DNA of 42,034 bases. Source: an uncultured Candidatus Saccharibacteria bacterium. GTDB taxonomy: Bacteria; Patescibacteriota; Minisyncoccia; Minisyncoccales; PEYH01. A model generated the notes under the pieces. The model was not told the origin of the DNA and did not search any database. It saw only the letters and a program-made list of their open reading frames with translations. Both the position numbers and the translations under genes were made by a program. This document shows, in pieces, positions 13,818 through 20,788 of this stretch. The DNA is taken from the NCBI GenBank assembly GCA_964530855.1, contig CAZHBV010000001.1:1-42034 (forward strand), in the 5' to 3' direction. Position 1 is the first letter of the stretch; each line of letters opens with the position of its first letter.

Positions 13818-14972
13818 TCATAATAAAACTGTATCGAGTAACCTTCTTCTTGCTGCTTCTTTCTCCTTTAGCGAAATTTTGGCTTTTTGAATAGCTTTTT
13901 CTACAATCTCGATTGTTTTATCATAAGTTGGCCTAGATACAGGATAAGGAGTGCCATCTTTGCCTCCATGAGCAAAAGAAAATCTCGCTGGATCTTCATA
14001 AGAAGGTTTTTTGCCATATATTAACTCCGCCACCAAAGTTAAAGCCCTCAAAGTTTTTGGACCTACTCCTTTAATTCTAACCAATTCCTCGAAAGTTTTT
14101 GGTTTTAGAAAATGGGCTGCTTCAATTGTTTTTCTTAGCCTTCTTAAATCAAATTTCTCTTGTAATACTGGGTGCCAATGAAACTCTACGTCCTTTAGGC
14201 TCATTAAAGTAAGCTGTCCGATTTGTTGTTTTTTAATTAAAGAGGTGGAATGTTTCTGAAGAGAAGAAAAATTTCTTAAAAAAGTTTTTGGTTCTTCCCT
14301 CACCATTTCTGTACAAATTTCTCTTGTTTCTTTGCTTTTTTTAGCAATCAAATTTAAGGGTTTCACCTTTCTTTGAGTTGCAATACCTGAATGTGGTTCT
14401 TCTGTGAAATCTTTTACCTTATCTGATAACCAATGATATCTTCTTGCGGTTGCATTTTTATCATTTAATCCTTGTTGAATTACTACCCATTTTCCGCTAT
14501 GAGTAAAAACTAAATTATGATGATATAAAGTATAGCCATCTTGTAGCGCAGAATTGTCAATTTTTGCAGAAATTTTTGAGGCATAAATTAAACTTTCAAT
14601 CCTCTTCTGATCCAATCCTATCACTTCTCCCCATCGTTTAATTTGCTCTGGTGTTTTTAAAGAAGTTTTTCCTTTCCCTCCACAAACAAAAATTCCCAAA
14701 TTTTTTTCAATCCCTCGTATTCCTCCTTTCAAAGCTGCTAAAGTTAAAGTAGTCAATCCTGACGAATTCCAATCAAAGGCAATAACACAACCCAAACTTT
14801 GAAACCAAACAGGATCTGAAATCCTTCTTAAAAATTCTTCTTCTCCAAACTCCTCAACAATGGCAATTAAAATTGCCCTAGACAATTTTTTCATTCTTTC
14901 AAAAAGCCAAGGAGGGCAATGTCCTGTATCTAATGGAAGTGTAGCAATTCCTGTTCTCATTAATTTAATCAT
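13818..14972 (-). CDS. DUF763 family protein (with a C-terminal helix-hairpin-helix)
   Basis: RTGIATLPLDTGHCPPWLFERMKKLSRAI matches my memory of the DUF763 N-terminus. LVRIKGVGPKTLRALTLVAELIYG is an HhH motif. Confidence 0.55.
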   Translation of the reverse strand: MIKLMRTGIATLPLDTGHCPPWLFERMKKLSRAILIAIVEEFGEEEFLRRISDPVWFQSLGCVIAFDWNSSGLTTLTLAALKGGIRGIEKNLGIFVCGGKGKTSLKTPEQIKRWGEVIGLDQKRIESLIYASKISAKIDNSALQDGYTLYHHNLVFTHSGKWVVIQQGLNDKNATARRYHWLSDKVKDFTEEPHSGIATQRKVKPLNLIAKKSKETREICTEMVREEPKTFLRNFSSLQKHSTSLIKKQQIGQLTLMSLKDVEFHWHPVLQEKFDLRRLRKTIEAAHFLKPKTFEELVRIKGVGPKTLRALTLVAELIYGKKPSYEDPARFSFAHGGKDGTPYPVSRPTYDKTIEIVEKAIQKAKISLKEKEAARRRLLDTVLL

Positions 14973-15026: not shown

Positions 15027-15968
15027 TTAGTTTCTTGAAACCCTTATTAAACCTGAACAAGGAATTATCTCAATTCCTCTTCTTTCTAATTCATCTAAAA
15101 ACAGATTCACTCCTAAAGAATCGGAAGACATATGGCCTGCAATTACTACATTTATCAAAGCATTTTCAGCCTCTTTTTTATGTTCCTCTGAAATATGCAT
15201 TCCGACAACTGTGCCAATTCCAACCTGAGCCATTTTTTCATAAAGTTTTGGAGAACCTTCTGTTCCTCCAGTAATTTCTGTTAAGGCAATTTTACCACAT
15301 CGGTTTTCTTTATCTCCAACAAAAATCTTAGGGCCGGCTCCAAGTTTTGTGGCTTTTTTGTACTCAGAAATTGATTTTAAGAGAGTTAAAAGATCTTTTA
15401 ATCTTTCTGGATTTTCTCTCTCAATCACTTCTTTTAAAAACCGTGCCGCTAAATTATCACAAACGGTATGAAGACACATTAAGTTTATTTTTAACAACTT
15501 TGCACAATCAACAGTTCTTTGATGATTTACCCTGTTTAGACCTCTTGCTACCTCAGAAATTCTTTCTTTCATTAATTTTTCGGCAATATTAATAGGAACT
15601 CCATATTGAGCCAATACATCGCATTGAAGTTCCATTACCTCATGTAATGTTGCAAGGGCCTTTCCTAAAGGGTGATGAGAAATTACAAGATCAACCCCCA
15701 ATTCTTTTGCCAACAAAATCTCTGCTGGCTCAATATCAATACCAACTAATACTTTTTTTATCTCTTTATCCTCGGCAATATGAAGAATTCTTGAATCTGA
15801 AAAAGGGTTTTCCAAACTCTCTAAATCAAACTCTTCTTTCTCTTCTTCTGACATTTTTTCATACACTTCTTTTCTTCTTTGAAGTAACTTCTCAATACCA
15901 GCCCTCCCTCTAAAATCGCTTTCTATTCCTTTTTGAATTGCTAATTTGTAGATTTCTCGAATCAGCAT
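15027..15968 (-). CDS. NIF3-like (dinuclear metal centre) family protein
   Basis: 313 aa with VDLVISHHPL and VIAGHMSSDSLG, consistent with the NIF3/YbgI family. The N-terminal ~60 aa are atypical. Confidence 0.5.
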   Translation of the reverse strand: MLIREIYKLAIQKGIESDFRGRAGIEKLLQRRKEVYEKMSEEEKEEFDLESLENPFSDSRILHIAEDKEIKKVLVGIDIEPAEILLAKELGVDLVISHHPLGKALATLHEVMELQCDVLAQYGVPINIAEKLMKERISEVARGLNRVNHQRTVDCAKLLKINLMCLHTVCDNLAARFLKEVIERENPERLKDLLTLLKSISEYKKATKLGAGPKIFVGDKENRCGKIALTEITGGTEGSPKLYEKMAQVGIGTVVGMHISEEHKKEAENALINVVIAGHMSSDSLGVNLFLDELERRGIEIIPCSGLIRVSRN

Positions 15969-16221: not shown

Positions 16222-19200
16222 TTACTCTCCTTTAATTACTGCCAAAGGCACAAGTCTTGCAACTTTTTTAGAAAGTCCTGCTTTGTGCACCACATCTACT
16301 ACTTCATCTACATTTTTATAAGCCTGGGGTGCTTCTTCTGCCACACCTTTAAAAGAATAGCATTTTACAATAATTCCTTTTTGCTCTAATGTTTCTACCA
16401 CATTTCTCCCAGAAATTGTTTTAATGGCTTTAGCGCGAGACATAGTTCTACCTGCACCATGACAAACTGTATGCCATGCCTCTTTTGATTTCTCTTCTCC
16501 CACAAGAACATAAGATGCTGTTCCCATTGACCCCGGAATAATTACCGGCTGCCCAGTTTCTTTATATTTTTCGGGAAGTTCTGAGTGTCCCGGAGGAAAG
16601 GCTCTTGTTGCTCCTTTTCGATGGACAATTAGTTTCATTTTCTTTCCATCAACCTCATGCTCTTCAATTTTGGCAATATTGTGCGCGACATCATACAAAA
16701 GTGTTAATTTTGCACTCTCGCCTAAAACTTTCTTCCAGGCTTTTCTTACATAATAAGAAATCATATGCCGATTTGCCCAGGCAAAATTACAGGCAGCCGA
16801 CATTGCCCTAAAAAACCTTTGCCCCTCCGGAGAATTAAAAGGAACACAGCACAATTCTTTATCTGGTAATCTTATTCCATATTTTGGATAAATAGGCATC
16901 AAAATTCTTAAGTAATCTGTGCAGTTTTGATGGCCTAAGCCTCGAGAACCTGTATGAATTAATACTACAACCTGCCCTTTGAATAAACCAAATTTCTTTG
17001 CGACTTCCTCATCATAAATTTCATCTACCCTATCAATTTCGCAGAAATGATTTCCGGATCCGAGAGTTCCAACTTGATTTCTCCCTCTGTTTTTGGCTTT
17101 CTCTGAAACGCAACTTGCATCGGCTGTCTCCATTCTTCCTTTGTACTCACAATTCTCAACATCTTCTTTTTCTCCATAACCTTTTTCCACCAAATAAGGC
17201 ACTCCTCCTTCTAAAATTCTGTTAATTTGCTCAATTGATAACTTAACTTTCCTTCCTCTTCCCAACCCAGATGGAACTTCTTTTTGAATCTCTTCTGCTA
17301 ATTTATCTAAATAAGGCCTGATTTCTTTTTCTGTATATTCTGATTTTAGCAATCTAACCCCGCAGTTCTGATCAAATCCGATTCCGCCAGGAGAAATTGC
17401 TCCATCTGGAAATTTGGTAGCAGCAACTCCTCCAATACAATTTGAAACCACAAAGTTATTAGCAATAAAATTATGAGAAGGATGGTTTATAGTAAAATCA
17501 TAAACCCAATCTTTATGAGAAATCCTTTTAATTTCTGCAATTTCATCCCATACTATCCCACTTTTACCTAATTTAGAAGTTACTGTTTTAAAATACTCTT
17601 GAAAAGTGGGAAAATTAGCAGGAACCTGAGGAGAAATATTCTTCAATCTTTTATTAATTTTCCAACACACATCAATTATAAATCTTTTTGTTAAAGGATT
17701 GCCGGTAGCAAGTTGCAAGGCTATTCTCTGGTAACTTAAACCTTTTTTTAATAAATTAGGAACAATTTTGTCAATTACTTCTCTTTTCTCTTCTAATATT
17801 TTTTGTTTGTATTTGAGATATTGAAGGGCAACATTAGCGACAAAACTGCGTTTTTTATTATATTCAAAACCAATTTTGGACCAGAGATTAATTAAACTTT
17901 CTATTTTTGAAGAAAAAACTAAATCTAATCCCCAAGAAATCTCCCCCTTAACATTAATATGCTTTTTTCGCTGCTTTATATAAATTGTTTCCACGCCAAA
18001 TTCTTTAAGAAGTTTAGATATATCTTCTAAAAACAACCTACCATTAGAAATTAACTTTTCAGCCTTATTCATTTGTAATACTGGGCAATTAAACATCGTT
18101 TTTCTTCCTTTTCTTGGATGAGGAGTTCTTAACTCTGCTCCAAAAAAACTAGCAAGAAACAATCGCTTTTGCCACAAAGGACATTTAAAAATCCATTTTG
18201 GAACTCGATATCTCTGAAACACTTTTTTACCTTTTGGCACCCCTAAGGTTTGAAGAAGCACCAAGAAACTGCTTGCGTTCACACAAAAAGAGTGCTTGAT
18301 ATAAATTTTCTTATTTCCTTTATAGATTCTTTCTTCCTTTTGAATATGAATTGGCGAAGGAGTATAGCCAATTTTTTTAATGTCTTTTCTAATCTCTTCT
18401 AAATCTTCTTTCTTTCCAAAAAATCCCACAATTCCATCACCTCTCTTTCCAATAAAATTCATTGTTCCATCACCAAAAACAAATCCCATTATTTTTAGAA
18501 GATAAGGAAGTTTGGGATGGTTGTAAGTTAAAGGCAGAAGAGAGCGTTTTTTTAATTTTTGTAAAATTATTCTAAATCGAGGAGTGTCTTCTTTAACACC
18601 TATTTTATTAAGAGTTTTTTTAATATCCTTTTCGTCAATTATAATCTCATTTGAAGGCTCCTCATAAGGAACTCCTTCAAAAGGGAAAATTGCAATTTTA
18701 TCTCCGGGATTTAGCTTTTCTAAAACCATCATTCCTTTAGGAGTATAAAATGGATGGTCTCCAGTAGCCACAATTTCTCTACCAGTTTTAGTAATTACTT
18801 TAAATACTTTACTTTTTGGTTTTATTTTCAAGAATTTTTGAATTGAGGCCTCAACTAACTTTTTTAATTTAAAATCTACAATTTTTAAAGTAAAATCTTT
18901 CTCCTTTTTCTGAAAATCCTTAATTGGAAGATAAAAACCAAAATTACTCAAAATTTTAGTGTCTCCTTTTAAACAAAAACCATAGCCCTCATGGGCATCT
19001 GGCATCGCTAAAGCATATTTTACAATTCCTGGAAGAGTAGTGATGTTTACCAATTGATGAAGTGATTTATCTCTAAAACAGTCTTCCAACAATTTCTTGG
19101 ATGCATAAATTCTTGCCGGGACTCTCATATCCGACCTGAAACTTTTTGGAATTTCCCAAAGATAATCGTTAATTTTTATAAAATCTTTTTTAGAAATCAT
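16222..19200 (-). CDS. rtcB: RNA 3'-phosphate/2',3'-cyclic phosphate ligase RtcB, interrupted by an intein
   Basis: The 75-aa N-extein (...YALAMPDAHEGYGF) plus the 405-aa C-extein (CIGGVAATKF...GFDQNCGVRL...GSGNHF...IHTGSRGLGH...HNIA...HRKGAT...GSMG...CHGAGR) add up to 480 aa, a normal RtcB length with its metal and GMP-His motifs. Confidence 0.95.
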   Translation of the reverse strand: MISKKDFIKINDYLWEIPKSFRSDMRVPARIYASKKLLEDCFRDKSLHQLVNITTLPGIVKYALAMPDAHEGYGFCLKGDTKILSNFGFYLPIKDFQKKEKDFTLKIVDFKLKKLVEASIQKFLKIKPKSKVFKVITKTGREIVATGDHPFYTPKGMMVLEKLNPGDKIAIFPFEGVPYEEPSNEIIIDEKDIKKTLNKIGVKEDTPRFRIILQKLKKRSLLPLTYNHPKLPYLLKIMGFVFGDGTMNFIGKRGDGIVGFFGKKEDLEEIRKDIKKIGYTPSPIHIQKEERIYKGNKKIYIKHSFCVNASSFLVLLQTLGVPKGKKVFQRYRVPKWIFKCPLWQKRLFLASFFGAELRTPHPRKGRKTMFNCPVLQMNKAEKLISNGRLFLEDISKLLKEFGVETIYIKQRKKHINVKGEISWGLDLVFSSKIESLINLWSKIGFEYNKKRSFVANVALQYLKYKQKILEEKREVIDKIVPNLLKKGLSYQRIALQLATGNPLTKRFIIDVCWKINKRLKNISPQVPANFPTFQEYFKTVTSKLGKSGIVWDEIAEIKRISHKDWVYDFTINHPSHNFIANNFVVSNCIGGVAATKFPDGAISPGGIGFDQNCGVRLLKSEYTEKEIRPYLDKLAEEIQKEVPSGLGRGRKVKLSIEQINRILEGGVPYLVEKGYGEKEDVENCEYKGRMETADASCVSEKAKNRGRNQVGTLGSGNHFCEIDRVDEIYDEEVAKKFGLFKGQVVVLIHTGSRGLGHQNCTDYLRILMPIYPKYGIRLPDKELCCVPFNSPEGQRFFRAMSAACNFAWANRHMISYYVRKAWKKVLGESAKLTLLYDVAHNIAKIEEHEVDGKKMKLIVHRKGATRAFPPGHSELPEKYKETGQPVIIPGSMGTASYVLVGEEKSKEAWHTVCHGAGRTMSRAKAIKTISGRNVVETLEQKGIIVKCYSFKGVAEEAPQAYKNVDEVVDVVHKAGLSKKVARLVPLAVIKGE
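17440..18975 (-). mobile_element. 512-aa intein with a LAGLIDADG homing-endonuclease domain inside rtcB
   Basis: It begins CLKGDTKIL (block A Cys1), has block B IVATGDHPFYT, two dodecapeptide motifs (LLKIMGFVFGDGTM and RLFLASFFGAELRT) and block F/G VYDFTINHPSHNFIANNFVVSN. The +1 residue is the Cys of CIGGV. Codon boundaries were checked on the DNA (TGT at 18975-18973, AAT at 17442-17440). Confidence 0.9.
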
Positions 19201-19221: not shown

Positions 19222-19252
19222 AAAAAAAATAGAGGGACAAGTGCCCCTCTAT
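19222..19252 (-). terminator. Rho-independent terminator between the unknown 356-aa gene and rtcB
   Basis: On the minus strand: ATAGAGGG-GCACTTGT-CCCTCTAT followed by TTTTTTTT. The stem includes the TAG stop (19249-19251) of the upstream gene. Confidence 0.65.
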
Positions 19253-20319
19253 CTCACGTATCTTTCTACCTCTGCCTCTTTAAATAAAGAGACGCATTTT
19301 TTCCAAAATTCGCTCTGGGTATCAACTATGTAATAGACCTTCTCTCCTTCTATCTTTTTAATAAAATCTGTCTCATCTATAAGCGCCCCAAGGGCTAATT
19401 GCAGGTTATCTTTTGAAACTATCTTTTTAAGGTTATCATTTCTCCAAATAGCCTCATTTGCGTAAAGATAAGTCTCCCAGATAGTATTTACTAAATTATG
19501 AAAACCTCTTTTATGGGTCTTTGTCTTAAGTTCCGGAAGAGCCCTTATTACAATTAGAAGAAATAACTCATATGGATCTTCAGAAGGTATGGTAAGCCTC
19601 TCTTTCTTTATTCTCTGAACTATTAATGTAAATGGATTTTCTTCTAAAGCCATGGGGTGTTTCTCTCCTCTTTTTTGAAGCCTGATAAAATATCTTCTCT
19701 CTGGATCCTTTATTAGCCTTCCCTCAAGGCTCATGGAAATTAAATTCTTTTCTTTAAAGAAAGATGCTATTTCTCTGGATCTTCGCATCAACCTTTGGTC
19801 GTTTGTAATTAGGAAAATTGTATCAATTCTTTCATTTGGAAAGAGACTGTTTTCCAACAATTTTGTTATTCTCTCATCGGCATCCGTGCAAGAAATGCAT
19901 ATAAACCCGGCTTCCTCGAGCATATTTCTTGTTCCGTCTGAAAGGTATCCCTCACAAAAGGCGAAGGCTCCTATCTGAGGCTTTCCTGTTAATTCTACTA
20001 AACGATCAATCAATCTTTGTCCTGGAAAATTTAGTTTTTCGTCTCTCAAAGCAAGATACAAATTTAGCCAATCTAAAACAACTGCAAACCCTTTTTGAAA
20101 GGATGGTTGAGATATTAATTTGTCAAAGATCTTTTGATTCTCTTCTAATATATTTACAAGCGTATCCTGGTTTCTTTGAACTTGATAGATTATCTTTTTC
20201 AGTTCTTCAACAGATCTATCGATTTTTTCAGTCATTTTACTAAAAGACTCTATCTTCCTTTCTAAATCCTTCAACCATCGACTAAAAAACTCCTGAAGAT
20301 TTTTTCTCATTTCCTTCAC
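19249..20319 (-). CDS. Uncharacterised protein: N-terminal coiled coil, PIN-like (NYN / YacP-Rae1-like) putative nuclease domain, and a C-terminal possible winged-helix domain
   Basis: 356 aa. FAVVLDWLNLY (D-x-x-N), ICISCTDADERITKLL and TIFLITNDQRLMRR reproduce the acidic-residue spacing of NYN/YacP domains. The first ~70 aa are heptad-like. A strong SD (AGGAGGTGA) lies 7 nt before the ATG. Confidence 0.4.
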   Translation of the reverse strand: MKEMRKNLQEFFSRWLKDLERKIESFSKMTEKIDRSVEELKKIIYQVQRNQDTLVNILEENQKIFDKLISQPSFQKGFAVVLDWLNLYLALRDEKLNFPGQRLIDRLVELTGKPQIGAFAFCEGYLSDGTRNMLEEAGFICISCTDADERITKLLENSLFPNERIDTIFLITNDQRLMRRSREIASFFKEKNLISMSLEGRLIKDPERRYFIRLQKRGEKHPMALEENPFTLIVQRIKKERLTIPSEDPYELFLLIVIRALPELKTKTHKRGFHNLVNTIWETYLYANEAIWRNDNLKKIVSKDNLQLALGALIDETDFIKKIEGEKVYYIVDTQSEFWKKCVSLFKEAEVERYVR

Positions 20320-20383: not shown

Positions 20384-20788
20384 TTAAACATCAAACAGAA
20401 TTATTGCTACATAATCTCCTTTTTTCTCTTTAATCTCTAAGTCATGATAGGTAACCCCTTTAATAATTAATTCTTTCTTTTTTATTTTTTTTCCAAAAAG
20501 TTCTCCCTCAAGGGTATTATCAGAGAATTTTTTAAATTTTATATTAAAATAAGCTTCGTTCTCTGTTTCGCTTAAATATAAAATCTCACTTAAAAAATCT
20601 ACAAGAAGTTGTAGAATATCTGGAGATTGAATTTTAATCTTTCTCTTGACTACTTTTCCCTCCGACTTTATTCCGGCTGCTTCAAACATCGCTCTCATCG
20701 CATTTAAAAAAAGTTCTCTTTTTGAGGAGCCAAAAACTTTTATTTTTAAATCTGCTTTATGAGGAAGAATTTCGAAAAATTTTTTCAT
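20384..20788 (-). CDS. Archease (RtcB activator)
   Basis: 134 aa. FEILPHKADLKIKVFGSSKRELFLNAMRAMFEA at the N-terminus and IKGVTYHDLEIKEKKGDYVAIILFDV at the C-terminus match the archease pattern (HTADi...G / KavTYH.l.v.....a.vv.DV). Confidence 0.8.
   Translation of the reverse strand: MKKFFEILPHKADLKIKVFGSSKRELFLNAMRAMFEAAGIKSEGKVVKRKIKIQSPDILQLLVDFLSEILYLSETENEAYFNIKFKKFSDNTLEGELFGKKIKKKELIIKGVTYHDLEIKEKKGDYVAIILFDV

Follow-up and report, generated by a model that had tools for sequence, protein, structure and literature searches.

The stretch of DNA analysed here (the window; 42,034 nucleotides, contig CAZHBV010000001.1 of assembly GCA_964530855.1) comes from an uncultured Candidatus Saccharibacteria bacterium and carries an rtcB gene whose reading frame contains a long insert with the features of an intein. 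The gene is an open reading frame (ORF) of 992 amino acids (16222..19200) on the minus strand, as are all features given with coordinates below, and is recognised by Pfam RtcB (PF01139, E 5e-163) and by NCBIfam NF038162. It is the sole rtcB of the 474-kb, 52-contig assembly. The initial annotation, made from the sequence alone, had resolved the ORF into a 480-residue RtcB extein and a 512-residue insert, and this division proved exact. The N-extein, delimited by cutting the translation and aligning it to the RtcB structure 1uc2, comprises residues 1-75 (18976..19200) and ends in ...MPDAHEGYGF. The insert, cut at CLKGDTKIL and after VVSN, comprises residues 76-587 (17440..18975) and was identified as a class 1 intein with a LAGLIDADG homing endonuclease from Pfam, sequence matches to the PDB, an AlphaFold2 model and Foldseek. 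The C-extein, placed by alignment to 1uc2, comprises residues 588-992 and the stop codon (16222..17439). The Cys at the start of the insert, the VVSN at its end and the Cys that follows as residue +1 (17437-17439), where the C-extein begins CIGGVAAT, are all as had been read.

The two extein halves align to neighbouring residues of Pyrococcus horikoshii RtcB (1uc2; ...MPDGHQGYGFP73 followed by I74GGVAA..., E 3e-162), which bears out the claim that the insert splits the RtcB motif HxGYGF/xIGGV (the slash marks the insertion point here and below). Matches of this strength are well outside what chance would produce. The P. horikoshii RtcB chains 1uc2 and 4dwr match the extein at E ~1e-162, and in the alignment to them all six metal and guanylylation residues (P. 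horikoshii D95, C98, H203, H234, H329 and H404) are conserved. The C-extein contains the motifs DQNC (DxNC), NH, HTGSRG, AHN and CHGAGR. The match to NF038162, which describes an 'intein-containing RtcB family protein' (RtcB_rel_intein), runs from residue 7 to residue 991 and covers profile positions 2-961.

The splicing domain

The insert has class 1 intein architecture, as had been proposed. Pfam Intein_splicing spans the entire insert (E 1e-20), NCBIfam TIGR01445 (intein N-terminal region) also matches it, and in a sequence search both of its ends resemble the DnaB, RecA and CDC21 mini-inteins of solved structure. The predicted fold of the ends superposes on mini-inteins with a root mean square deviation of 1.7-1.9 Å over ~97 aligned columns.

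The N-terminal half of the splicing (HINT) domain, defined by its similarity to the DnaB mini-inteins 4o1r and 1mi8, corresponds to intein residues 1-100 (18676..18975) and includes block A (Cys1) and block B (T71-G-D-H74, 18754-18765). The C-terminal splicing segment, defined by sequence matches and the family alignment, corresponds to residues 471-512 (17440..17565) and includes block F (VYD493FT...H501NF) and block G (NNFVVS511-N512). In block G the terminal Asn512 and the Cys+1 are present, while the penultimate residue is Ser511 instead of His. Alignment of blocks A, B, F and G had been suggested as a check on whether the insert is an intein or some other inserted domain. All of the blocks are present, and C1, H74, D493, H501 and N512 are invariant in 141 of the 141 family inteins that were extracted, which argues against a non-intein domain. 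The block B Thr71 is kept in 135 of the 141.

The endonuclease domain and its predicted structure

The two dodecapeptide motifs that the initial annotation had picked out lie, like the block B motif TGDH (residues 71-74), within the insert. The first LAGLIDADG motif, GFVFGDG, occupies intein residues 164-170 (18466..18486) and supplies the catalytic Asp169; the second, LASFFGAE, occupies residues 274-281 (18133..18156) and supplies the catalytic Glu281. A conserved lysine, Lys304 (18064-18066), was identified from the family alignment. Conservation of these residues across the 141 family inteins is high, with D169 kept in 137, E281 in 135 and K304 in 135-137.

The AlphaFold2 model of the intein, built on 14 homologues, has a predicted local distance difference test (pLDDT) score of 93.4 and a predicted template modelling (pTM) score of 0.92. 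In the model GFVFGDG ends the helix formed by residues 156-168, and LASFFGAE ends the helix formed by residues 267-281. When the core of the model was compared with I-SceI, I-WcaI, I-AniI, I-OnuI and the bI3 maturase, the Foldseek probability was 1.00 and the target-normalised template modelling scores (TM-scores) were 0.39-0.58. The presence of a homing endonuclease is thus supported by two LAGLIDADG motifs, conserved catalytic residues and a predicted alpha-beta-beta-alpha-beta-beta-alpha fold of the LAGLIDADG type. The model places an extra, all-helical domain (residues 374-465, 17581..17856; helices 374-410, 415-422, 430-441 and 458-465) after the endonuclease core and before the C-terminal splicing segment; this is probably an accessory DNA-binding domain.

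The top Foldseek matches in the PDB are themselves endonuclease-bearing inteins, namely TliVMA (7qss, E 7e-19), PI-PfuI (1dq3), PI-TkoII (2cw7) and PI-SceI (1lwt), with E values from 7e-19 to 3e-9. These share the plan of the window intein, in which the HINT domain is split by a two-motif LAGLIDADG endonuclease with accessory domains. They differ from it in that they are only 9-16% identical in sequence, reside in other host proteins and possess the canonical penultimate His. Overall, the model and these four structures give low TM-scores (~0.3), which may reflect different orientations of the domains.

Members of the RtcB intein family

When the intein alone was used as query, 1,157 proteins matched at E <= 1e-3. 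The top 120 of these matches are RtcB proteins throughout, and their identity to the window intein over the full 512 residues is 36-74%, apart from P0005, the cluster representative of the window protein itself (99.8%). The RtcB inteins closest to the window copy (68-74% identity) come from metagenome bins. When genomes were scanned at one per species, a relative of the family was found in at least 415 genomes, including those of Omnitrophota, Patescibacteria-type bins, Atribacterota, Chloroflexota, Poribacteria, Bipolaricaulota, Fraserbacteria, Clostridia, Woesearchaeota, Methanosarcinales and Methanocaldococcus. The family therefore occurs in both bacteria and archaea, in agreement with the cross-domain angle taken in the initial annotation. 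RtcB inteins from both domains appear among those already tabulated in 2016 (PMC4760082). The window intein is an ordinary further copy of this large, curated, cross-domain RtcB intein family.

The RtcB proteins described by NF038162, which are found in Methanocaldococcus and in many uncultured bacteria and have the GYGF/C site, share their end-to-end architecture with the window protein. The Methanocaldococcus inteins agree with the window intein in their site, in C1 and in the ...VSN/CIGGV junction, and are 47-49% identical to it over all 512 residues; their host is an archaeon, whereas here it is a bacterium with a tiny genome. Judged by sequence, the true site-mates of the window intein are those found at GYGF/C in Methanocaldococcus and in many uncultured bacteria.

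An intein in P. horikoshii RtcB (PH1602) had been named as the known example of an RtcB intein. The host protein is indeed the same; the site is not, as the P. horikoshii extein reads GYGFP/IGGV, with Pro where the window protein has the +1 Cys. The P. horikoshii intein is likewise of class 1 with a +1 Cys after it, and by the published active-site numbering lies before Cys98 in GYDIN/CGVRL. In the window rtcB the motif GFDQNCGVRL is uninterrupted, and the DIN/CGVRL site is located ~24 residues downstream of the window site.

The penultimate Ser was likewise assessed across the family. Ser occupies this position in 135 of the 141 inteins (His in four and Gly in two), and SN/C is the junction in 79 of the 85 junctions from named genomes. 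It is thus a trait of the lineage and not specific to the window gene. The residue had been correctly noted as replacing His, and it is rare among inteins generally; it is no oddity within this family, where it is the norm. Inteins of M. jannaschii without a penultimate His have reportedly been studied by Chen, Benner and Perler (2000). These and other inteins that naturally lack it, including Ssp DnaE (Ala) and those of mycobacteriophages (Gly, Lys or Ser), retain the block F His and are reported to splice (PMC4031507, PMC5050341). The Ssp DnaE, M. jannaschii and mycobacteriophage inteins belong to different lineages and host proteins, and the window family differs from them in that Ser is fixed and not scattered.

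Empty sites in close relatives

An rtcB gene is present in 22 of 40 relatives of the window genome. Four of the genomes belong to the same genus, and three of these (G002-G004) have an rtcB that is uninterrupted and without intein; no rtcB match was found in the fourth, a half-complete assembly. The exteins of the three same-genus genes are 80-83% identical to the window extein, closer than those of nearly all intein-bearing matches. Their empty sites read GYGF/PIGGV or GYGP/PIGGV, one allele having the sequence ...GGTTATGGTTTT/CCAATCGGAGGAGTA... across the site. Val stands at the +1 position in other relatives, and Cys in one that has no intein. The latter (locus L083 of genome G016) is an intein-less rtcB with the sequence GYGF/CIGGV, and its Cys could either have been left behind by precise loss of an intein or represent a pre-adapted target.

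Within the host's order the intein family was found in 19 of 201 genomes, each from a different genus and each with the copy in an open frame. This scattered distribution, together with the intact endonuclease residues, fits the pattern expected of a homing element that is active or has recently been so. In the genus of the window genome, gain is favoured over loss because loss would need three precise events that also reverted Cys to Pro. The suggestion that the insert is a selfish element is in keeping with these results, the intein looking mobile from both its absence in the three same-genus genes and its distribution in the order.

Base composition was considered as a sign of foreign origin and is uninformative, the guanine plus cytosine (GC) fraction being 0.296 for the intein, 0.382 for the extein and 0.331 for the window. 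The protein P0015, a close relative, is a mosaic: its identity to the window protein reaches 93% in the N-extein and 94% in the N-terminal splicing segment, against only 69% in the endonuclease domain, a pattern suggestive of recombination within the intein.

Occupation of several positions in rtcB

The insertion site of the window intein was compared with those in the 120 best-matching proteins (P0001-P0120) and in the loci L001-L080 and L093-L096. Besides the position of the window copy (site a, GYGF/CIGGV), copies were found at GYDIN/CGVRL (site b), which is at the metal ligand Cys98, and at IMIH/CGSRG (site c). A further position, ...G/CGFDIDCG, ~6 residues upstream of site b, is represented by one copy. 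One intein lineage is therefore present at no fewer than three different rtcB sites, and probably at four.

Full-length copies at sites a and b are 46-64% identical to the window intein, in the splicing and endonuclease domains alike, and those at site c are 36-39% identical. Site b copies reach 64% identity with the window intein, matching most of the site a copies. In addition, single rtcB genes of ~1,400-1,500 amino acids contain two homologous inteins. The divide between allelic and non-allelic inteins is usually near 30% identity (PMC10710043).

The intein trees interleave copies from sites a and b, and their well-supported branches force at least 4-5 switches between the sites. A single clade of site a inteins was rejected by the approximately unbiased (AU) test (p = 0.0025). 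Interleaving could in principle have been produced by swapping of endonuclease domains between inteins resident at different sites. Separate trees rule out such swapping as the sole cause, since the sites interleave in each domain's own tree, with at least two switches in the tree of the endonuclease domain only and at least three in that of the splicing domain only. Copies at site b form the deepest intein branches, in a tree that is midpoint-rooted only, and the Cys of this site is native and invariant, which makes site b the likelier ancestral home of the lineage. Taken together, these findings make it fairly probable that a single intein lineage, recognisable by its Ser-Asn C-terminus, has repeatedly changed its position within one and the same gene.

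Target mimicry between sites a and b was also considered. In ungapped comparisons of 27 nucleotides of DNA from five intein-less alleles, the two empty sites share 5-9 identities, and the gene-wide mean is 7-8. The similarity is at the level of chance, and simple target mimicry is therefore unsupported. In the RtcB intein literature, of which the search covered a part, no description of such multi-site spread within rtcB was found.

One of the additional loci, L093 (G020:C25), is an RtcB ORF of 1429 amino acids that has a site b intein of the family and a second insert of ~412 residues near the CHGAGR guanylylation motif. In a BLAST comparison this second insert had no similarity to the window intein, which indicates a separate intein lineage in the same gene.

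Neighbouring genes

An archease gene (20384..20788; PF01951, E 2.7e-29) is located 5' of rtcB and is co-directional with it. Archease is a known partner of RtcB. Between the two genes lies an ORF of 356 amino acids (19249..20319) that has no Pfam or NCBIfam match; it is co-directional with both, the gaps being 48-64 nucleotides, and may represent a partner so far overlooked in an archease-RtcB operon. Directly downstream of rtcB are two minus-strand genes (13818-14972 and 15027-15968), encoding NIF3/DUF34 and then, by a strong match (E 2e-132), DUF763 with a helix-hairpin-helix motif. Other genes of the window code for DnaA, a class A penicillin-binding protein (PBP1a) and a Mur ligase, from which it follows that the host is a bacterium, as had been assumed.

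Discussion

The insert is very probably a class 1 intein that is able to splice and carries a two-motif LAGLIDADG homing endonuclease, residing in the sole rtcB of a bacterium with a very small genome. Its architecture, its membership of the RtcB intein family and its distribution are direct observations. That it splices may be inferred from an extein that is intact, a gene that is present only once and the conservation across the family, and cleavage of DNA from the features of its endonuclease. By canonical intein chemistry, Cys1 would attack the peptide bond of Phe(-1) after translation and the N-extein would be transferred to the +1 Cys. Cyclisation of Asn512 would then free the intein, with Asp493 and His501, which are invariant in block F, assisting in place of a penultimate His, and the exteins would be rejoined as ...GYGF-CIGGV... 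to give an active RtcB of 480 residues. At the level of DNA, the endonuclease would cut intein-less rtcB alleles, and repair would copy the intein together with its Cys codon into the cut site; the window intein itself may, on the evidence of its sequence and distribution, cleave and home in this way.

Several points weigh against this interpretation. The NF038162 score of the window protein (1108.4 bits) is slightly under the cut-off of the model (1150). The Pfam LAGLIDADG_3 match of the window intein is weak (E 0.086), and the endonuclease assignment therefore rests on the motifs, the family conservation and the predicted fold. The absence of the intein from the same-genus genomes could in principle be due to precise loss and not to recent gain. 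In the literature no splicing or DNA-cleavage experiment was found for any member of the Ser-Asn family, the window copy included. That the insert is a permanent domain insertion or the mark of a pseudogene, and no intein at all, has nevertheless a negligible probability, given that the set of splicing blocks is complete and does not vary within the family, that the edges of the insert fall between residues adjacent in intein-less RtcB, that the reading frame is open and that the predicted fold agrees with those of inteins. A more serious alternative is that the intein splices while its endonuclease is dead, making it a fixed passenger that is inherited vertically. Decayed endonucleases are common in inteins according to the homing-cycle model (PMC3229294), the weak LAGLIDADG_3 match would fit such decay, and the GC fraction of the intein, low like that of its surroundings, does not mark it as obviously foreign. 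We regard this alternative as unlikely, since both catalytic acidic residues and the Lys are present and widely kept among the relatives, the endonuclease domain is of full length and predicted with high confidence, and the rtcB genes of G002-G004 have Pro at +1 with no leftover Cys. Moreover, the nearest relatives of the intein are in hosts whose exteins are less like that of the window than are those of its intein-less genus mates.

The initial annotation had gone further and proposed that the Ser-Asn C-terminus may affect the kinetics of Asn cyclisation and make the maturation of RtcB conditional. With cyclisation slowed or gated in this way, the intein would serve RNA repair as a post-translational switch. 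The penultimate His normally aids Asn cyclisation, and in some inteins splicing proceeds at a different rate once this His is changed (PMC4031507, PMC5050341). Because catalytic motifs lie on either side of the intein, an inactive precursor is to be expected, and a redox-sensitive pair of Cys1 and Cys+1 is conceivable. The prevalence of Ser among the homologous inteins and their junctions speaks against the proposal, Ser being the family norm across hundreds of species in two domains, and the idea is further undercut by the copies in uninterrupted ORFs and by the window extein, which retains every catalytic residue. The block F His, which is able to substitute for the penultimate His (PMC5050341), is invariant in the family. 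Furthermore, ~5% of functional inteins have a residue other than the penultimate His and yet splice normally (PMC4031507, PMC5050341), which is why this His is not strictly defining for class 1 (PMC4031507), and its restoration may improve splicing in some inteins and impair it in others (PMC4031507, PMC5050341). No regulatory feature was found. A conditional switch is therefore considered very doubtful, and the window intein is not worth pursuing as a special regulatory element.

As one more copy of a curated and widespread intein-containing RtcB, the window intein is by itself of little import. The Ser-Asn family to which it belongs offers hundreds of natural sequences for studying how Asn cyclisation is catalysed without a penultimate His, and the sporadic occurrence of the intein in bacteria with tiny genomes marks gene flow among lineages that are hard to study. 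The repeated movement between sites is the only aspect that might merit further work. Occupancy of several sites at identities well above those usual for non-allelic inteins bears on how inteins reach new insertion sites. Should the switches prove to be genuine ectopic insertions, rtcB would offer a natural setting in which to study the colonisation of new sites by inteins in prokaryotes.

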